DNA from: a virus
Taxonomy: Duplodnaviria > Heunggongvirae > Uroviricota > Caudoviricetes
Strand: one strand, 5' to 3'
DNA: 9,366 bases
IMG/VR virus record: IMGVR_UViG_2675903425_000024
Below are positions 1,901 to 9,366 of the stretch, piece by piece. Position 1 is the first letter of the stretch. Every line of letters begins with the position of its first letter. The notes under the pieces were generated by a model. It was not told the DNA's origin. It ran no database searches and worked only from the letters and a program-made list of their open reading frames with translations. The translations under genes and the position numbers were made by a program.

Positions 1901-1932
1901 AAGACTTATTCTTATCTGTGCCGGGAATGAAA

Positions 1933-2259
1933 ATGAAAAGAAATCTTCCGTTAATTATTTTGTTGTCTTCTCTGGTTATGGGCTGTACGCAACATAAAAC
2001 AGATATGCCCCGACAGTTGGTTAAGGCATTACCACAATATCCGGCCTATGCAGCGGCAAATTATATAAAGGGACGGGTTGATGTGAAGTTTGATATTGGT
2101 GCTGATGGTACTGTCACCCGAATTGAGTTTATCCGTTCAGAGCCGCACCATCTGTTTGATGAGCAGGTTGTAAAGGCGATGGCAAAATGGCGATTTGAGA
2201 AGGACAGGCCGCGTAAAGGCGTGAAGAAAACGTTTATCTTTAGTCCTTCTGCACCCTGA
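1933..2259 (+). CDS. Outer-membrane lipoprotein consisting of a TonB C-terminal-like domain (moron)
   Basis: Signal peptide with lipobox (MKRNLPLIILLSSLVMG|C, +2 residue Thr, so predicted outer-membrane sorting). The body (YPAYAAANYIKGRVDVKFDIGADGTVTRIEFIRSEPHHLFDEQVVKAMAKWRFEKDRPRKG) aligns by eye with the E. coli TonB C-terminal domain ([61 protein letters not shown]). Alternative starts GTG 1918 or ATG 1927; GGGA at 1923-1926 favours 1933. Confidence 0.8.
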   Translation: MKRNLPLIILLSSLVMGCTQHKTDMPRQLVKALPQYPAYAAANYIKGRVDVKFDIGADGTVTRIEFIRSEPHHLFDEQVVKAMAKWRFEKDRPRKGVKKTFIFSPSAP

Positions 2260-2390
2260 TTATTTCATCAGAAATTAATTATCACTCTGTTGTTATTCTG
2301 TACATTCCGGCTGGGTAAGTCTTGTTCCGCCGGGTATGAAGATGAAATATTGTTGGAGGACAGTGGGTACCTGCTCCTGTAACCGAACGT

Positions 2391-2591
2391 TCATTTCTCG
2401 TTATTTGTCATGCTGGCCGGACGCAGATGCGTTGCATCTGTTGCCAGCCTTCTCCTGCAGGCTTCAATAACCCACGCTGAAAAGTTACCGGAACCTTTAT
2501 GTTCAAGGGCGATATTGATCTGTTCAATCATGTGATTGGGGAAACGGATATTGCGGGTTGTGGTTCTGCGGGTCCGGTTTTTCGATGACAT
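2391..2591 (-). CDS. Ribbon-helix-helix (Arc/Mnt/CopG-like) DNA-binding protein
   Basis: 66-aa product MSSKNRTRRTTTRNIRFPNHMIEQINIALEHKGSGNFSAWVIEACRRRL... The N(I/L)R(F/W)P beta-strand followed by helix and the G-S-x-N-S/F motif matches the Arc/Mnt pattern. Start chosen at the internal ATG (plus 2589-2591) with SD AAGGA 7 nt upstream; the longer track ORF (to 2651) would overlap the divergent HNH start. Confidence 0.7.
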   Translation of the reverse strand: MSSKNRTRRTTTRNIRFPNHMIEQINIALEHKGSGNFSAWVIEACRRRLATDATHLRPASMTNNEK

Positions 2592-2632
2592 ATTTATTTC
2601 CTTTACTGATTGCCATATGACGGGGATTTTAC

Positions 2633-2998
2633 ATGGCTGAGCTTCGTACACTCCAGAGCAGAATCAAAACACTGAATACCCGACGGGTGAATATTCTGAA
2701 GGGTGAACAGCGTCGTGTCAGTGGCAGTGCACGTGTTTCCCTCAAGCGTCATATCTGGCTCAGGGATGCCGGGCAGTGCTGTCTCTGTGGTCGTGTGGTT
2801 GACCTCTGTGACAGTGAACTCGATCACCGAATTGCACTTCAGTTCGGTGGTGGTAATGAGGAGACGAATCTCTGGACGCTCTGTACCGAATGCCATCGAC
2901 AAAAGTCTGCTCGTGAAGCGGCGGGTGGTATGCCGGACCCGACGCTGCCGGAGGTGTCCGGAGGTAGTGGCAGAGCGGACGACATCATCGGACTGTAA
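2633..2998 (+). CDS. HNH endonuclease (terminase-associated, HK97 gp74-like role)
   Basis: 121-aa ORF with the HNH/zinc-finger signature CCLCGRVVDLCDSELDHRIALQFGGGNEETNLWTLCTECHRQKS (Cys-x2-Cys...His...Asn...Cys-x2-Cys-His). It sits immediately upstream of the probable cos region and terminase genes, the canonical arrangement in HK97-like cos phages. Confidence 0.85.
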   Translation: MAELRTLQSRIKTLNTRRVNILKGEQRRVSGSARVSLKRHIWLRDAGQCCLCGRVVDLCDSELDHRIALQFGGGNEETNLWTLCTECHRQKSAREAAGGMPDPTLPEVSGGSGRADDIIGL

Positions 2999-3286: not shown

Positions 3287-3850
3287 GTGCTGACAACGCA
3301 AAAACGAAAATTTGCGCTGGCGCTCATGTCCGGGAAAAACAAAACAGCGTCAGCCCTTGCCGCCGGTTATTCGGCGAAGACAGCCAGGGTTAAAGGCTCG
3401 CAGCTGGCAAAAGATCCGGAGGTGCTTGCGTTTATAGCCCGTAAACAGTGCGAGACGGTGGAGGTGGATGAGGTTCCTGTTTATCGGCAGAAAAAATCAG
3501 AGCCGGAGGATAAACCCCGTCGCCGTGAGGCGGCTGCAATACCACAGCCGGACGAAACAAATCCGGAGATGCCACCGCCCGTGGTGATATCTCCTGGTAT
3601 TGAGTATATGGAGGACGGTCTTCCCGATCCGGTGAAAGCGATGGGGCGTCTTCTGGTGGAGAACATTAATACCGACCCCAGGCTGGCGCTGGATGCGGCT
3701 TATAAGCTGGCGCAGTTCACGCACCACAAAAAAGGGGATGCCGGTAAAAAATCGGCAAAAGGTGACGCGGCGAAAAAAGCGGCTAACCGTTTTGCGGTGC
3801 CACCACCACCCCGCCTGGTGGTGAATAATGATAATGAGGGCAACGGATGA
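3287..3850 (+). CDS. terS: Terminase small subunit (Terminase_2 / P27-family type)
   Basis: GTG start at 3287 preceded by the strong SD GGGAGGAGG (3275-3283). The N-terminus (TQKRKFALALMSGKNKTASALAAGYSAKTARVKGSQLAKDPEVLAFI) matches the helix-turn-helix signature of small terminase subunits (...KQ..F......A...AGYS.KTA..GS.L...P.V...I). Stop overlaps the terL start (ATGA). Confidence 0.8.
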   Translation: MLTTQKRKFALALMSGKNKTASALAAGYSAKTARVKGSQLAKDPEVLAFIARKQCETVEVDEVPVYRQKKSEPEDKPRRREAAAIPQPDETNPEMPPPVVISPGIEYMEDGLPDPVKAMGRLLVENINTDPRLALDAAYKLAQFTHHKKGDAGKKSAKGDAAKKAANRFAVPPPPRLVVNNDNEGNG

Positions 3851-5508
3851 TACCTGTGTGGAGCACGGCCTGCCCGGACTGGGCAGAGCGCCTGAAAAAG
3901 GGGCTGTCGATTATTCCGGCTCCGATTTATCCGGAGCAGGCCGCACATGCCCTGGCGATTTTTAAACAACTGCGGATTGTGGATGCACCGGGCAGCCCGA
4001 CGTTCGGGGAGTCCTGCGCACAGTGGGTGTTTGACCTGGTGGCGGCCCTGTTTGGCTCCTACGATGCGCAGACCGGTGTACGCCATATCAAGGAAGTTTT
4101 TATCCTTATCCCCAAGAAAAACAGCAAGTCCACGCTGGCTGCCGGGATCATGATGACGGCGCTGTTACTGAACTGGCGGCAGGCGGCGGGCTACACCATT
4201 CTGGCCCCGACCGTGGAGGTGGCGGCTAACGCCTTCAACCCTGCCAGGGATATGGTACGACGGGACGATGATCTGGATGACCTCTGTCAGGTGCAGACAC
4301 ATATCCGGACCATCACCCACAGGGTGACGGACACCACCCTGAAGGTGGTGGCTGCCGATCCGAATACGGTATCCGGTATCAAGTCCGTGGGGACGCTGAT
4401 TGATGAACTGTGGTTATTTGGCAAGCAGTACAAAGCGGAGGACATGTTACGTGAAGCCATAGGCGGCCTTGCCTCCCGCCCGGAAGGGTTTGTGGTGTAT
4501 ACGACCACCCAGTCGAATGAGCCGCCAGCCGGGGTGTTCAGACAGAAACTGCAGTACGCCCGGGATGTCCGTGACGGCAAAATTCATGATCCGCACTTTC
4601 TGCCGGTGATTTTTGAGCATCCTCCTGAAATGGTGGAAAGCGGGGCTCACCTGCTGATGGAAAACCTCGCCATGGTTAACCCGAATCTCGGTTATTCGGT
4701 GGATGAGGCTTTTCTGTACCGGGAGTACCGTAAAGCCCGGGAGGCTGGTGAGGAAGCATTTCGTGGCTTCATGTCAAAACATGCCAATGTGGAAATTGGT
4801 CTTGCCCTGCGTTCTGACCGCTGGGCGGGTGCGGATTTCTGGGAGCAGCAGGGCAGGCGCGTCAGCCTGGACGATATCCTGCAGCGCGCTGATGTGGTGA
4901 CGGTGGGGATTGACGGCGGGGGCCTGGATGATCTGCTGGGAATGTACGTGATTGGCCGTGACAGGGAAACCCGCGAATGGCTGGGCTGGGGCCATGCCTG
5001 GGCGCATGAAACCGCGGTGGTCCGACGGAAGAGCGAGGCGTCCCGGTTTCAGGATCTTGTTGCCTGTGGAGATATGACCATTGTCCGGCGTGTCGGGGAT
5101 GACACGGCGGAAGTGGCGGAATATGTGCGTCGCATTCATGAGGCTGAGTTACTGGACCATATCGGTATTGACCCGTCAGGGGTGGGGCAGATTCTGGATT
5201 CACTGGCGGAAGCCGGGATCCCCGACGGAATTGTGGTGGGGATAAGCCAGGGCTGGAAACTGGGCGGGGCCATTAAAACCACCGAGCGCAAACTGGCTGA
5301 AGGGGTGCTGGTGCATGGTGACCAGCCCCTGATGGCCTGGTGTGTCGGCAATGCCCGGGTGGAGCCTAAAGGTAACGCCATTCTTATCACCAAACAGGCC
5401 AGTGGACGGGGAAAAATTGACCCGCTGATGGCGCTGTTCAATGCGGTCTCCCTGATGTCCCTTAACCCGGAACCGAAAAAGAAAGAATATGCGGTTTTTT
5501 TCATATAA
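3847..5508 (+). CDS. terL: Terminase large subunit (ATPase/nuclease)
   Basis: 553-aa ORF overlapping terS by 4 nt. Walker-A-like P-loop (ILIPKKNSKST), overall length and context typical of HK97-like large terminases. Followed by head genes. Confidence 0.92.
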   Translation: MIPVWSTACPDWAERLKKGLSIIPAPIYPEQAAHALAIFKQLRIVDAPGSPTFGESCAQWVFDLVAALFGSYDAQTGVRHIKEVFILIPKKNSKSTLAAGIMMTALLLNWRQAAGYTILAPTVEVAANAFNPARDMVRRDDDLDDLCQVQTHIRTITHRVTDTTLKVVAADPNTVSGIKSVGTLIDELWLFGKQYKAEDMLREAIGGLASRPEGFVVYTTTQSNEPPAGVFRQKLQYARDVRDGKIHDPHFLPVIFEHPPEMVESGAHLLMENLAMVNPNLGYSVDEAFLYREYRKAREAGEEAFRGFMSKHANVEIGLALRSDRWAGADFWEQQGRRVSLDDILQRADVVTVGIDGGGLDDLLGMYVIGRDRETREWLGWGHAWAHETAVVRRKSEASRFQDLVACGDMTIVRRVGDDTAEVAEYVRRIHEAELLDHIGIDPSGVGQILDSLAEAGIPDGIVVGISQGWKLGGAIKTTERKLAEGVLVHGDQPLMAWCVGNARVEPKGNAILITKQASGRGKIDPLMALFNAVSLMSLNPEPKKKEYAVFFI

Positions 5509-5533
5509 CCCTGTTCACACTGTAACCATCATG

Positions 5534-5559
5534 AACCGCTGCGGCGGTTTTTTTATTTT
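5534..5559 (+). terminator. Weak intrinsic terminator or attenuator between terL and the head gene
   Basis: Short GC stem aaCCGC-tgcg-GCGGtt (5534-5549) followed by TTTTTTTATTTT (about 5548-5559), immediately upstream of SD AGGAGG (5561-5566) and GTG 5572. Confidence 0.4.
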
Positions 5560-5571
5560 CAGGAGGCTGAT

Positions 5572-7509
5572 GTGACTCTTAAACGGGCCTGTTCCCTGCT
5601 GACGGTGAAATCCTTCAGTGAGGATGAACGGGTGATCACCGGGATTGCGTCAACGCCTTCTCCGGATCGGGATGGTGACATCCTGGAGCCGGAGGGCGCG
5701 GAGTTTGGCAGTGCGATCCCGTTTCTCTGGCAGCATGACCATTCCCGCCCGGTGGGGCAGTGTACGGTGCGCCGGGTCAGCGAAGGGCTGGAAATCACGG
5801 CAACACTGGTGAAGCCCGTACCGGATATGCCGTCGCAACTGGCTGCCCGGCTGGATGAGGTCTGGGCGGCCATTAAGACCGGGCTGGTCAGGGGGCTGTC
5901 CGTGGGCTTCCGTCCCCATGAATACACCTTTCTGGACGGAGGCGGACTGCATTTTCTGCGCTGGGAACTGATGGAGGTGTCTGCCGTCACCGTGCCCGCG
6001 AATGCGGAATGCACCATCCGGACCATTAAATCTTACGACCGCCCGTTTTCTGCCGCGTCCGGCAACCGGAAACCGGTGGTGAAAATCGCATCTTCTGCCG
6101 GCGCTGCGGCACAGTCAACAACCGTTTTTCATAAGGAAAAGACCATAATGAATATTGGCGAACAGATTAAAAGTTTTGAAAACAAGCGTGCAGCGCTGGC
6201 AGCCTCCCTTGAGGAGGTCATGACCAAAGCCGCAGAGGAAGGGCGCACGCTGGATGTGGAGGAGGAAGAGCATTACGACAACACCGCAGCGGAAATCCGT
6301 CAGGTGGATGCGCACCTGAAGCGCCTGCGTGAACTGGAAGCCGGTAAGGCCGCCACGGCGCAGCCGGTGAAACAGGCCGGTAACGGGAATGTGGCCGCGG
6401 TGGCTTCTGCGCCGGTGATCCGTGTGGAGCAGAAACTGGATAAGGGGATTGGCTTCGCCCGCTTTGCCAAATCGCTGGCTGCGGCTAAAGGCGTCCGATC
6501 TGAAGCCCTGGAAGTGGCCCGTCGTCAGTATCCGGATGACAGTCGTCTGCATCATGTCCTGAAATCGGCAGTGGGCGCGGGGACCACCACGGATCCGCAG
6601 TGGGCAGGCAGCCTGTCTGAATATCAGGAATACGCACAGGACTTTATTGATTACCTGCGTCCGCAGACCATTATCGGGCGATTTGGTCAGGGCGGGATCC
6701 CTGCACTTCGTCAGGTGCCATTCAATATCCGTGTGCACGCCCAGGTGTCCGGCGGTGCTGCCGGCTGGGTGGGTGAGGGTAAGGCAAAACCCCTGACGAA
6801 GTTTGATTTTGAATCCATCACCTTCAGTCATGCGAAGGTGTCGGCCATTGCGGTACTGACGGAAGAATTGATCCGTTTTTCCAGTCCGGCTGCTGATGCA
6901 CTGGTCCGTAATGCGCTGGCGGAAGCGGTGGTGGCGCGTCTGGATACAGACTTTGTGGACCCGAAAAAAGCCGCAGTGGCAGATGTCTCCCCGGCGTCCA
7001 TCACCCATGATGTGAAGGGCACGGCATCAACCGGTAACCCGGATGCGGATGCCGAGGCTGCGTTTGGACAGTTTGTGGCAGCAAACCTGCAGCCCACCGG
7101 TGCGGTCTGGCTGATGTCCAGCACCAATGCCCTGGCACTGTCCATGCGTAAAAATGCGCTGGGTCAGAAGGAATACCCGGACATGACCCTGCTGGGTGGC
7201 TCCTTCCAGGGGCTGCCGGTGATTGTCTCCCAGTACGTGGGTGACCAGCTGGTGCTGGTGAATGCCCCGGATATTTATCTGGCGGATGACGGCGGCGTGG
7301 CAGTGGATATGTCCCGCGAGGCATCACTGGAAATGCAGTCTGAGCCGGGCGGCGACAGTACCACGCCGTCCCCGGTGGAGCTGGTTTCCATGTTCCAGAC
7401 AGGCAGCGTGGCCATCCGTGCGGAGCGCTGGATCAACTGGCGTCGTCGCCGTACTGCGGCGGTGGCGGTGATCACCGGAGTGAACTACGGCAGTGCGTCC
7501 GGCGGCTGA
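5572..7509 (+). CDS. Prohead protease (HK97/S78 family) fused in-frame to major capsid protein (HK97 fold)
   Basis: Single 645-aa ORF with SD AGGAGG 5 nt upstream of the GTG start. The N-terminal roughly 190 aa (GIASTPSPDRDGDILEPEGAEF...WQHDHSRPVG...SAVTVPANAEC) resembles HK97 gp4-type prohead proteases. From about residue 193 (MNIGEQIKSFENKRAALAASLEEV..., coiled-coil delta-domain-like, then a roughly 400-aa body) it resembles HK97-type major capsid proteins. An internal in-frame ATG at 6148 with AAGGA 10 nt upstream could also initiate the capsid protein independently. Confidence 0.9.
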   Translation: MTLKRACSLLTVKSFSEDERVITGIASTPSPDRDGDILEPEGAEFGSAIPFLWQHDHSRPVGQCTVRRVSEGLEITATLVKPVPDMPSQLAARLDEVWAAIKTGLVRGLSVGFRPHEYTFLDGGGLHFLRWELMEVSAVTVPANAECTIRTIKSYDRPFSAASGNRKPVVKIASSAGAAAQSTTVFHKEKTIMNIGEQIKSFENKRAALAASLEEVMTKAAEEGRTLDVEEEEHYDNTAAEIRQVDAHLKRLRELEAGKAATAQPVKQAGNGNVAAVASAPVIRVEQKLDKGIGFARFAKSLAAAKGVRSEALEVARRQYPDDSRLHHVLKSAVGAGTTTDPQWAGSLSEYQEYAQDFIDYLRPQTIIGRFGQGGIPALRQVPFNIRVHAQVSGGAAGWVGEGKAKPLTKFDFESITFSHAKVSAIAVLTEELIRFSSPAADALVRNALAEAVVARLDTDFVDPKKAAVADVSPASITHDVKGTASTGNPDADAEAAFGQFVAANLQPTGAVWLMSSTNALALSMRKNALGQKEYPDMTLLGGSFQGLPVIVSQYVGDQLVLVNAPDIYLADDGGVAVDMSREASLEMQSEPGGDSTTPSPVELVSMFQTGSVAIRAERWINWRRRRTAAVAVITGVNYGSASGG

Positions 7510-7525
7510 GTCTGATAAGGAGGAC

Positions 7526-7543
7526 GGGAGGCGTGCGCCTCCC
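7526..7543 (+). other. Perfect GC-rich hairpin downstream of the capsid gene (RNA stability or translation-coupling element; not a canonical terminator)
   Basis: GGGAGGCG-tg-CGCCTCCC (8 bp inverted repeat) 17 nt after the capsid stop. No T-run follows. It lies between a strong SD-like TAAGGAGG (7515-7522) and the ATG at 7554. Confidence 0.5.
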
Positions 7544-7553
7544 GTAACAGGTT

Positions 7554-7775
7554 ATGGCAAAGATCCGATATCTGCAGGGCACGCATGATGCCCGGGCCGG
7601 GGATATCCGTGATGTGGCACAGCCGTGTGCGGAGGTGCTGGTTCGCCTGGGGAAGGCGGAGTACATCACAGCGCGACGTCCGGCAGGTCAGAAAAAGAAA
7701 CGTGATGCGGAGCATGGCGAATGTGGAACCTTTTGCGGCGAACCCGAAAAAACCAGAAATCAGGACGTGACGTAA
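7554..7775 (+). CDS. Hypothetical small protein (73 aa) between capsid and portal genes
   Basis: ORF MAKIRYLQGTHDARAGDIRDVAQPCAEVLVRLGKAEYITARRPAGQKKKRD... Codon usage resembles the neighbouring head genes. No family recognised. Overlaps the best portal start (7721) by 55 nt in a different frame, so either this ORF or the portal start call may be wrong. Confidence 0.4.
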   Translation: MAKIRYLQGTHDARAGDIRDVAQPCAEVLVRLGKAEYITARRPAGQKKKRDAEHGECGTFCGEPEKTRNQDVT

Positions 7776-9366
7776 GAGAAGTGGGCTGGCGGTCCCTGTT
7801 TCAGGCGGTGGCTGAGCCTTTTGCCGGTGCCTGGCAGCAGGGGGTGAAAGCCGATCCGGAAACCGTTTTGTCCTTTCACGCGGTGTTTTCATGCATTTCG
7901 CTGATATCCCAGGATATTGCCAAAATGCGGCTTCGCCTGATGCAGACTGATGTACAGGGAATACGCCGGGAAAAGCGGCAGGGAGATACTGCCCGTCTCT
8001 GTCGTCGTCCTAATGCGCAGCAGAATCGCATCCAGTTTTTTGAACTGTGGCTGAATTCCAAATTGCGTCACGGCAATACGGTGGTGCTGAAAATCCGCAC
8101 CCCCCGGGGGCAGATCAAAGAACTGCGTATTCTGGACTGGAACCGGGTTGAACCTCTGGTGGCGGATGACGGCGAGGTGTTCTACCGCATCACGCCGGAC
8201 CGGAACTGTGGGATCACAGAGTCGGTGACGGTGCCTGCCCGGGAGGTGATCCACGACCGTTTTAACTGTTTTTTTCATCCGCTTGTGGGGCTGCCGCCGG
8301 TGTATGCCGCAGGACTGGCCGCCATGCAGGGGCATCATATTCAGGCAAATTCGACGTATTTTTTCAGAAATGGCGGGCGACCATCAGGCGTGATTGAGGT
8401 CCCCGGCAGTATTACGGAAGAAAACGCGAAAAAACTGAAGGGGAACTGGGACAGCGGATATACGGGCGAAAATGCCGGGAAGACGGCCATACTGAGCAAC
8501 GGGGCAAAATACAGCCCCACGACGTTTTCACCGGTGGATGCGCAGACGGTGGAACAACTGAAAATGACGGCTGAAATTGTCTGTTCGGTGTTCCGTGTCC
8601 CGGCCTACAAGATTGGCGTTGGCCACCCGCCTTCCAGTGACAACGTGGAGGCGCTGGAGCAGCAGTATTATTCCCAGTGTCTGCAGACGCTGATTGAGTC
8701 CATTGAACTGTTACTGGATGAGGCGCTGGAAACGGGGGAAAACGAGAGTACAGAATTTGATGTCACCACGCTGCTGAGAATGGACAGTGAGCGGCGCATG
8801 AAAACGCTGGGGGATGCGGTGAAAAATACGCTTCTCACGCCCAATGAGGCCCGTAAACGGGAGAACCTGCCGCCCCTGGCCGGCGGTGATGCACTGTATC
8901 TTCAGCAGCAGAACTACAGTCTGGAGGCGCTGTCCCGTCGTGATGCCCGTGAGGATCCGTTCGCGTCTGCCGGGAAAACAGTTTCATCACAGCTGCCTGA
9001 CGGCGCATCTGACGGTAATAAGGCAATCAGTGAAACAGAGCATGATGCGGTGAAAGCGATGTTCAGGGGGGATACTGAGAAAATGACGGAACGGGAACTG
9101 TCCATTATTCGTGCACTGGGAGAAGAATTTTCCACAGTGCTGGCGGATTTACAGCGCACATTTGAGGGGAAGATGGCCTCGCAGGCACAAGCGTTTGAAG
9201 AGAAACTGACTTCCCTGTCGGCGGTATTACAGAAGCATGTGACGGTGGATGAGGTGCGTCCGGTTCTGCAGGCGATGGTGGATGACGCTGTGGGGGCCAT
9301 TCCGGTACCGCGTGATGGTCGTGATTATGATCCGGATGTACTGCAGCAGGCGGTGAATGATGCGGT
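7721..9366 (+). CDS. Portal protein (HK97-family), 3' end beyond the window
   Basis: Frame 2 is open from ATG 7721 (GGAG at 7709-7712, 8 nt upstream) to the window end, with no stop, which is why it is absent from the ORF track. Translation contains portal-like stretches (FHAVFSCISLISQDIAKMRLRL..., ...FRVPAYKIGVGHP..., ...EQQYYSQCLQTLIESIE..., ...ENLPPLAGGDALYLQQQNY). Alternative start GTG 7781. Confidence 0.88.
   Translation, partial: MWNLLRRTRKNQKSGRDVREVGWRSLFQAVAEPFAGAWQQGVKADPETVLSFHAVFSCISLISQDIAKMRLRLMQTDVQGIRREKRQGDTARLCRRPNAQQNRIQFFELWLNSKLRHGNTVVLKIRTPRGQIKELRILDWNRVEPLVADDGEVFYRITPDRNCGITESVTVPAREVIHDRFNCFFHPLVGLPPVYAAGLAAMQGHHIQANSTYFFRNGGRPSGVIEVPGSITEENAKKLKGNWDSGYTGENAGKTAILSNGAKYSPTTFSPVDAQTVEQLKMTAEIVCSVFRVPAYKIGVGHPPSSDNVEALEQQYYSQCLQTLIESIELLLDEALETGENESTEFDVTTLLRMDSERRMKTLGDAVKNTLLTPNEARKRENLPPLAGGDALYLQQQNYSLEALSRRDAREDPFASAGKTVSSQLPDGASDGNKAISETEHDAVKAMFRGDTEKMTERELSIIRALGEEFSTVLADLQRTFEGKMASQAQAFEEKLTSLSAVLQKHVTVDEVRPVLQAMVDDAVGAIPVPRDGRDYDPDVLQQAVNDA

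Follow-up and report, generated by a model that had tools for sequence, protein, structure and literature searches.

A prohead protease-capsid fusion gene common in E. coli prophages keeps an internal start that may also yield the free capsid protein

The gene described here lies in a 9,366-nucleotide stretch of Caudoviricetes DNA (IMG/VR record IMGVR_UViG_2675903425_000024; below, the window, in which runs of N are masked outside the gene) and serves as head gene in a Shiga-toxin-type prophage that is very common in E. coli. Its single reading frame encodes a prohead protease joined to a major capsid protein, and from its comparison with hundreds of relatives we infer that two nested, C-terminally identical proteins are produced from two independent starts, that they co-assemble, and that the strengths of the two starts, through the ratio of the products, set the dose of protease. 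We put the probability of this reading at roughly 70%. The features on which it rests are collected in Table 1.

Table 1. Features of the fusion gene and its two putative initiation regions (positions in the window)
Feature	Position	Strand	Remarks
Shine-Dalgarno AGGAGG, long form	5561..5566	+	5 nt upstream of GTG; anti-SD duplex energy -10.3 kcal/mol
Long ORF	5572..7509	+	645 aa, 69.0 kDa; protease, linker, delta domain and capsid; GTG start, TGA stop
GTG start codon, long (protease-delta-capsid) product	5572..5574	+	relatives have an ATG start (MTLKRAC...) at the aligned position
HK97-type (S78) prohead serine protease domain	5713..6027	+	aa 48-152; Pfam PF04586, E 2.4e-8
Candidate catalytic residues	His55 5734-5736; Ser110 5899-5901	+	conserved in relatives
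Variable disordered linker	6028..6147	+	aa 153-192; 3' end is also the internal ribosome-binding region
Internal Shine-Dalgarno AAGGA	6133..6137	+	10-nt spacer to ATG
Internal in-frame ATG (M193), proposed start of short product	6148..6150	+	equals Met1 of standalone homologues; invariant in alignment A1
Short nested ORF	6148..7509	+	453 aa, 48.2 kDa; delta domain and capsid; canonical HK97-type capsid precursor
Delta (scaffolding) domain	6148..6426	+	about aa 193-285; C-terminal boundary approximate
Capsid shell domain, predicted HK97 fold	6427..7506	+	about aa 286-645; PF05065 and profile matches

A first, sequence-only reading of the window had claimed that protease and capsid form one ORF, and this is borne out: the frame contains no internal stop codon, and both Pfam domains score above their curated cutoffs (Peptidase_S78 34.7 bits against 21; Phage_capsid, aa 386-635, 52.7 against 24.2). 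The NCBIfam model TIGR01554 (major_cap_HK97) matches aa 204-584 with 78.3 bits against a cutoff of 27.5. The protease falls below the stricter equivalog TIGR01543 (46.4 bits against 59), and the profile search of solved structures gave no match to it. His55 and Ser110, which we take from general knowledge of the S78 family to be the catalytic pair, are invariant in 29 sequences of 38-53% identity, so the protease part of the protein appears to be functional. Among the Enterobacterales relatives the GTG at the long-form start occurs only in the E. coli lineage. The linker that follows the protease is the most variable and the sole indel-rich stretch in the alignment of relatives (A1).

The AlphaFold2 model, built on a shallow alignment of 16 sequences and hence poor (mean pLDDT 40), is usable for the delta helices alone: it places disorder from about aa 138 to 193 (pLDDT about 25) just before a helical hairpin, residues 195-222 and 229-261, that follows M193 (pLDDT about 80). 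In the family profile, positions 198-267 aligned with residues 4-71 of 9gyi_B, a capsid protein of 385 aa whose solved structure has a helical domain at the N-terminus. These two results, together with the starts of standalone homologues (see below), support the suggestion that ATG 6148 opens a delta-domain-like region. For the shell domain the profile matched the solved capsid proteins 9d9w (8.6e-16) and 8gta (2.6e-9), a better result than the single marginal capsid match of a single-sequence PDB search. The ORF lies directly after TerL and before the portal gene, and no separate scaffold gene is found between these two, the delta domain standing in its place.

The fusion could be an artefact of a stop codon or frameshift overlooked in the assembly, or the gene could belong to a prophage in decay, and the masked runs in the window as well as the many defective lambdoid prophages of E. 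coli O157 genomes could be counted in favour of such an origin. The distribution of the gene refutes it, and we give it practically no chance. At 90% identity or more the same uninterrupted ORF recurs in 93 phage records and, in 2,977 places, in 1,255 of 5,426 complete E. coli genomes, which removes the assembly-error caveat attached to the original claim; the exact 645-aa protein is found on at least 1,000 contigs, and the inducible phages 2851, BP-4795 and vB_EcoS_phi330 carry the ORF at 97.8-99.9% identity. The fused state persists down to about 45% identity, and the architecture is kept in Enterobacterales, in Betaproteobacteria and in one alphaproteobacterial MAG. Comparison with homologous prophages, proposed to see whether the fusion is conserved, found a single ORF in 103 of 109 related loci.

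The internal ATG and its AAGGA are confirmed at the positions and spacing given in Table 1, and the spacer is long. Taken in one sequence, this ribosome-binding site is unremarkable and not above chance: its duplex energy is -6.2 kcal/mol, and about 12% of the other in-frame codon positions are equally strong (calculated on the near-identical BP-4795 copy). Its significance therefore rests on the comparative data. The surroundings are more distinctive, since GC content falls to its lowest within the ORF in windows of the linker (29-31% against about 59%; 29% at the junction), and in the BP-4795 copy the junction folds with -5.8 kcal/mol against a mean of -18.3. For the 73 distinct junctions, the share of windows equally extreme in GC content and folding has a median of about 2%; part of the low GC, and of the richness in K, E and G described below, could come from a flexible linker rich in Lys, Asn and Thr and not from an RNA signal. 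When the 453-aa product is considered by itself, TIGR01554 aligns its model position 3 with residue 12. We also considered M217 (ATG 6220), preceded by GAGGAGG, as an alternative start and rejected it, the spacer being 2 nt only and the motif unconserved in relatives. Forty-nine contigs on which the 453-aa product stands as its own gene were likewise rejected as a natural split variant; they are truncations at contig edges and one assembly riddled with indels, whose TerL and portal genes are broken too.

The relatives supply evidence for the internal start. Among 107 fused cluster representatives, less than 50% identical to one another, the junction residue is Met in 99 and Val in 8, and all 73 distinct junction DNAs have a start codon there (ATG 69, GTG 4), counts that are not independent trials, the sequences being phylogenetically related. 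Of the 99 representatives with Met, 71 have it at offset 0 or -1, and of 43 standalone capsid homologues 26 begin at offset 0 or +1. The N-termini of split relatives correspond (L024 VNLQEQIK; L025 and L028 MTIEEQIN; L098 MTTKTVGEQI), and in L098 an in-frame stop codon immediately precedes the ATG. Conservation of Met was rejected as a diagnostic by itself, because the core residues M515 and M588 are also 89-95% conserved, and we used in its place a positional null within the linker: a Met lies within three residues on either side of the junction in 85% of cases, against 1-9% in equal-sized linker windows elsewhere.

The nucleotides upstream point in the same direction. Almost every one of the 73 junctions has a GGA or GGAGG core 7-11 nt before the start, although the residues encoded there vary (KE, KG, QG, TG, KEG, PEEG or QEK), and in L094 the motif even stands in a different frame (aac agg aga aag, compared with cag gag ggc). 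K, E and G account for 61% and 50% of the residues at -4 and -3 against a background of 18%, and dipeptides of the Shine-Dalgarno type are found in 53% of junctions but in 10% of the remaining windows. This suggests that the Shine-Dalgarno sequence is kept as nucleotides and not as peptide, and selection appears to act on the internal initiation site. A signal at the level of the protein, such as a protease recognition site or a delta-helix cap, could in principle also produce a conserved Met behind a K/E/G motif. Proteases of the HK97 type are known to cleave within the linker and the delta domain, and the core methionines are conserved to a similar degree. Yet the upstream peptide is unconserved where the purine-rich core is conserved, even across reading frames, the Met is replaced by Val only (GTG in the DNA) and never by Leu or Ile, and the junction position is residue 1 of the standalone proteins. 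We consider a protein-level origin of the motif very improbable.

The strength of the internal site differs between lineages. Within the group of 44-50% identity it reads AAGGAGG, GAGGAGG or CAGGAGG (-10.8 to -12.3 kcal/mol), a strength that as a rule is matched nowhere else among the codon positions of the ORF; in the E. coli and enterobacterial lineage it is weak (AAGGA or AAAGGA, -5.3 to -6.2 kcal/mol), and roughly 4-19% of other codon positions are its equal. In distant relatives the internal site, at about -11 to -12 kcal/mol, is far stronger than that of the first start (about -6). Across lineages no uniform rule relating the first to the internal initiation region was found, and the product ratio is unpredictable from the comparison.

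The most serious alternative is that the gene makes a single polyprotein, with a protease on every capsid subunit, free capsid protein arising solely by autocatalytic cleavage, and the internal ATG and its Shine-Dalgarno sequence being disused remnants from an ancestor whose capsid gene stood by itself. A published homologue bears on this directly. ORF003 of Pseudomonas phage PAJU2 (UniProt P85500, capsid polyprotein; named 'prohead protease fused capsid protein' in its record) is a true homologue, 48% identical over its full length and in the same gene order of terminase, fusion, small ORFs and portal. According to the available text of PMC8306868, citing Uchiyama 2009, it is an autocatalytically cleaved polyprotein, a proposal that also stands in the note of the record, and no internal start is mentioned in that text. 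In this cultured phage, CAGGAGG accompanies an internal ATG at aa 197. A protease, scaffolding domain and capsid are likewise combined in ORF18 of Lactococcus phage Nocturne116, studied by cryo-EM, in which the N-terminus of the mature capsid protein is residue 243, indicating cleavage at the scaffold/capsid boundary (PMC13595954). Nocturne116 shares the three-part architecture but belongs to an unrelated lineage and host, was absent from the sequence-search matches, and builds a prolate head that includes a separate vertex protein; at its protease/scaffold boundary there is an in-frame ATG at aa 145 with AAAGGAAA. The recurrence of this layout in both phages speaks for dual initiation.

Besides these two precedents, the weakness of the internal site in the E. 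coli copy agrees with a polyprotein only, and by our own rough estimate there is physical room for about 415 protease-delta chains in a T=7 shell. A relic should decay, however, and the start is kept in all 107 clusters and all 73 junctions although it lies within the most variable, indel-rich region; its Shine-Dalgarno sequence survives changes of amino acid and of frame, it coincides with the minimum of GC and structure, and in distant relatives it is far stronger than the first start. Fused and split states have often changed into one another (at least 35 switches among 148 representatives), as would be expected of a capsid gene that retains its own start in either state; with switching so frequent, some fusions could also be recent and their start site still undecayed. 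On balance we regard the polyprotein-only explanation as unlikely, although it deserves a good deal more weight than the other two alternatives. The earlier suggestion that the capsid protein could be made both fused and free is thus supported computationally by the kept start, the kept Shine-Dalgarno sequence and the minimum of GC and structure.

Under dual initiation, ribosomes starting at GTG 5572 would make a 69-kDa protease-linker-delta-capsid chain, and those starting at ATG 6148 a 48-kDa delta-capsid chain, which is a normal capsid precursor of the HK97 type. By the capsid domain that they have in common, both chains would co-assemble in the procapsid shell, and the covalently tethered protease of the long form would thereby be placed inside. 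Once the shell is assembled, the protease would excise itself together with the delta domains, so that mature shell protein remains. How many proteases a shell receives would be set by the strengths of the two initiation sites relative to each other.

Nested in-frame genes for a protease-scaffold and a scaffold protein are known from lambda (C/Nu3), Mu (I/Z) and herpesviruses (UL26/UL26.5). The analogy with lambda C/Nu3 drawn in the sequence-only reading is apt, there being an internal in-frame start with a ribosome-binding site inside a longer ORF. As in the lambda and herpesvirus pairs, one frame would serve two initiation events that yield a common C-terminus. The maturation protease would probably enter the procapsid as part of the long form, the abundant assembly protein would be the short one, and both would presumably be removed by proteolysis. 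The herpesviruses make their short form from a transcript of its own rather than by way of an internal ribosome-binding site. Unlike in lambda and the herpesviruses, the shared C-terminal part comprises here the delta scaffold domain and the capsid shell protein, with no separate scaffold, which ties the protease to a subunit of the shell. Similarities to HK97 gp4/gp5 are the S78-type protease, the capsid protein with an N-terminal helical delta/scaffold domain, the lack of a separate scaffold gene, the HNH-TerS-TerL packaging genes and the HK97-type portal. In HK97, protease and capsid are separate genes in the order portal-protease-capsid, whereas here they form one ORF right after TerL and ahead of the portal, with a protease below the TIGR01543 cutoff.

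The fusion itself is known and has been annotated since the early 2000s; BP-4795 and PAJU2 carry such an annotation, and examples from actinophages and archaea have been published. The same domain architecture is described by the NCBIfam model NF045541 ('prohead protease/major capsid protein fusion protein') and by the 'capsid and protease fusion' genes of actinobacteriophages (clusters AN, AU, AM, BI, DJ, CC, EE and AW). The 645-aa protein reaches only 54 bits against the NF045541 cutoff of 525, with a match confined to aa 48-287, and thus represents a different lineage. A report of an internal start or of two products was not found in the literature searched, and an earlier mention may exist, nor was proteomic or ribosome-profiling support for both products; the comparative support for a putative internal start is what the present analysis adds. 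The basic architecture being already known, the gain is a refinement rather than a surprise.

It is tempting to extend dual initiation to a general rule, maintained by selection, for fusion genes in phages of Proteobacteria and probably in the c2-like phages of Gram-positive hosts, and we think it somewhat more probable than its opposite. The capsid gene would then always keep its own ribosome start, fused and split states would be interchangeable arrangements one stop codon apart, switched dozens of times. The long form would be a minor, covalently targeted subunit for delivery of the protease, its dose tuned at the first start, in E. coli by means of the GTG and an overlapping ATG-TGA start-stop.

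Pipeline labels for the gene vary between 'major capsid protein', 'prohead protease' and 'hypothetical protein', and the nested product appears in none of them, which is of consequence for annotation practice. The gene is present in about a quarter of complete E. coli genomes, Shiga-toxin phages included, and being so common it is easy to test. A standing question of capsid assembly is how the right small number of proteases comes to lie inside a shell of about 400 capsid subunits, and the known solutions are a targeting tail on the protease, as in HK97, and a nested protease-scaffold gene, as in lambda and the herpesviruses. The fusion family points to a third and very economical solution, in which the protease would be tethered to a minority of the shell subunits and the ratio set at translation.

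The unbroken frame, the protease and capsid domains and the internal ATG with its AAGGA, which a sequence-only reading had described, are all present on re-reading the fusion ORF (window 5572-7509, + strand), which has 645 codons and zero internal stops. The same unbroken ORF is shared, at ≥90% identity, by 93 phage records, mostly Stx1a-, Stx2a- and Stx2c-converting phages (including 2851, BP-4795, YYZ-2008, 1717 and vB_EcoS_phi330), and by 1,255 of 5,426 complete E. coli genomes, where it lies at 2,977 places with up to 7 copies per genome. At 73-78% identity, the usual form in Salmonella, Enterobacter, Klebsiella, Serratia, Pantoea and Kosakonia is a fused protein of 644-650 aa. Of 109 related loci retrieved from viral contigs and genomes, 103 have a single unbroken ORF; these extend to about 35-45% identity, with Proteus, a Reyranella MAG, a Burkholderiaceae MAG and Candidimonas among them. 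Comparison with homologous prophages thus shows a conserved fusion, and an assembly error, on whose absence the earlier reading had depended, or any other artefact or pseudogene is excluded.

Features of the window and of the fusion protein (nucleotides of the window; aa, residues of the fusion protein)
Feature	Position	Strand	Remarks
TonB_C lipoprotein, 113 aa	1918-2259		TonB C-terminal domain; between lysis genes and HNH/terminase
DUF3950 gene	2391-2651	minus	Between lysis genes and HNH/terminase
TerL	3847-5508		Directly precedes fusion ORF in gene order
Long-form start	GTG 5572	+	AGGAGG 5 nt upstream
Peptidase_S78 prohead protease	aa 48-152		Pfam
Internal in-frame ATG (M193)	6148	+	AAGGA at 6133-6137, 10-nt spacer
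HK97 major capsid	aa 204-584		TIGR01554
Phage_capsid	aa 386-635		Pfam
73-aa ORF			3' of fusion ORF, before portal
Portal, HK97-type			3' of 73-aa ORF, runs past window end; TIGR01537, E 1e-108

Conservation is high in the protease part, where H55 and S110 are invariant in 29 sequences of 38-53% identity. In the alignment, aa about 155-192 are the most variable and the sole indel-rich stretch of the fusion protein, and are predicted to be disordered (pLDDT about 25). A confident helical hairpin (H195-222 and H229-261, pLDDT about 80) begins at residue 195 of the predicted structure. In a family profile this hairpin matches residues 4-71 of 9gyi_B, a capsid protein of 385 aa whose solved structure has a helical domain at the N-terminus, which places M193 within about three residues of a canonical delta-domain capsid start. 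The computed masses of the predicted products are 69.0 kDa (long form) and 48.2 kDa (short form, from M193).

The internal Shine-Dalgarno (SD) is modest in this sequence (-6.2 kcal/mol), with about 12% of other in-frame positions matching its strength in the near-identical BP-4795 copy, and the case for an internal start therefore rests on comparison. A GAGGAGG also lies 2 nt 5' of an in-frame ATG at 6220 (M217; window 6211-6222); this start was rejected, its spacer being too short and the motif not being kept among relatives, and the motif probably just reflects Glu-Glu codons.

A search with aa 193-645 against 1.84 billion cluster representatives gave 5,645 matches, the best 150 of which comprise 107 fused proteins (<50% identical pairwise) and 43 standalone capsid proteins. 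The standalone starts align with M193 (offset 0 in 17, +1 in 9), and the junction residue is Met in 99 and Val in 8 of the 107 fused representatives. Met lies within ±3 residues of the junction in 85% of the latter, compared with 1-9% for equal-sized linker windows elsewhere. All 73 distinct junction DNA sequences carry a start codon (ATG 69, GTG 4), with a purine-rich SD core 7-11 nt upstream in nearly all. In the group of 44-50% identity this reads AAGGAGG, GAGGAGG or CAGGAGG (-10.8 to -12.3 kcal/mol), a strength usually matched by no other codon position in the ORF. The junction is also the lowest-GC stretch of the fusion ORF (29% vs about 59%, in the window) and its least-folded spot (-5.8 vs a mean of -18.3 kcal/mol, BP-4795 copy); across the 73 junctions, windows as extreme make up a median of only about 2% of the same ORF.

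K, E or G stands at -4 and -3 of the junction in 61% and 50% of cases against 18%, and 53% of junctions have an SD-type dipeptide, compared with 10% of other windows. That the conserved junction is a protein-level motif is nevertheless very improbable, because the signal is kept as nucleotides and across frames: the residues encoded by the SD core vary (KE, KG, QG, TG, KEG, PEEG, QEK, NRRK), and in one related locus (L094) the motif is read in another frame. The main rival, for which we see a lesser but real chance, is that only a polyprotein is made and the internal start is an unused relic; for phage PAJU2 an autocatalytically cleaved polyprotein has been proposed (PMC8306868). This rival does not agree with start codon and SD having been kept throughout, within the region of the protein that evolves fastest.

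Where a relative has the two genes split, its capsid gene has an SD of its own and begins at the codon homologous to ATG 6148 (Snodgrassella MTIEEQIN, Acidovorax VNLQEQIK), and in locus L098 the capsid ATG is immediately preceded, in frame, by the protease stop codon, so that a single codon separates the split and fused states. Parsimony on an NJ tree of 148 representatives gives at least 35 fused/split switches, a count that tree error may inflate, and switching is clearly recurrent. In the cultured phage PAJU2, CAGGAGG precedes an ATG at aa 197, and MKTTAEQIAEFE follows it. Lactococcus phage Nocturne116 belongs to an unrelated lineage; its ORF18 (L119 7804-9354) has AAAGGAAA followed in frame by an ATG at aa 145, which coincides exactly with the protease/scaffold boundary. 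This ATG is not mentioned in the publications consulted. According to cryo-EM, its mature capsid protein begins at residue 243 of a three-domain precursor (PMC13595954). The comparative start-codon, SD and GC/folding evidence supports the earlier interpretation that an internal start could also give free capsid protein.

Comparison of the two initiation regions across lineages gave no single rule. In distant relatives the internal SD far exceeds the first in strength (about -11 to -12 vs about -6 kcal/mol), the first is the stronger in Enterobacterales, and the internal site is the more accessible in 58 of 72 loci. Among the loci compared, the first ATG is replaced by GTG in the E. coli lineage only. 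An out-of-frame ATG followed by TGA (ATGTGA, window 5570-5575) overlaps GTG 5572 and shares its AGGAGG, possibly as a 'start-stop' damping long-form initiation; Enterobacterales relatives have in its place a plain ATG about 8 nt after the SD. A terminator-like hairpin (GAACCGC-TGCG-GCGGTTT plus T-run, window 5533-5559), 3' of the TerL stop and 5' of the fusion gene, is the sole one in 5300-7800 and is not above shuffle expectation; T-rich sequence directly upstream of the SD is also found in relatives.

By ORF and domain reading, the window holds a lambdoid-prophage late region, with KilAC antirepressor, Rz-like spanin, TonB_C lipoprotein, DUF3950 gene, HNH endonuclease, TerS and TerL upstream of the fusion ORF. 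N runs (X in translations) mask portions of the Rz/spanin region at about 1250-1560, and ORFs there are therefore not readable through. The TonB_C lipoprotein, absent from the annotated features of the matching BP-4795 stretch, and the DUF3950 gene look like moron-type cargo (window 1918-2651). The order TerL, protease-capsid, 73-aa ORF, portal (last part 7554-9366) is atypical among HK97-like heads and is the same in PAJU2. The portal ORF starts within the 73-aa ORF, and intact copies of it (L113/L114) have 753 aa, which implies a long C-terminal extension past the portal domain; BP-4795 annotation splits it into ORFs 58 and 59.

The protease-capsid fusion architecture is already known: the annotation reads 'putative major head protein/prohead protease' for BP-4795 ORF56 and 'prohead protease fused capsid protein' for PAJU2 ORF003, several actinobacteriophage clusters routinely have a 'Capsid and protease fusion', and NCBIfam NF045541 models such fusions, the window protein falling outside it (54 bits, cutoff 525). 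In archaeal proviruses, S78 or chymotrypsin-like proteases are fused to the capsid protein (PMC6563490). One protein from our search (P0143) joins a ClpP-type (S14) protease to the same capsid family, also with Met at the junction, and looks like an independent fusion; two others (P0123, P0126; about 1,090 aa each) combine an AAA ATPase and a capsid domain, with an S78 domain detected in P0126. Elsewhere the fusion gene is named 'major capsid protein', 'phage prohead protease', 'phage head maturation protease', 'capsid and scaffold', 'structural protein' or 'hypothetical protein', and the PGAP name 'phage major capsid protein' conceals its protease domain. In the accessible literature we found no paper that reports or tests the internal start; it may have been mentioned earlier elsewhere.

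HK97, lambda C/Nu3 and herpesvirus UL26/UL26.5 are established systems, and it is by analogy with these that co-assembly, processing and a product ratio may be proposed for the ORF, domains and conserved start signals observed here. The sequence comparisons support the conserved nested start as a variant, undescribed so far as we found, of the lambda C/Nu3 principle. Two nested products would have the delta-capsid part in common, the long form bringing its covalently tethered protease inside the shell, of which the short form would be the bulk building block, and the protease would cut away itself and the delta domains once the shell is assembled.
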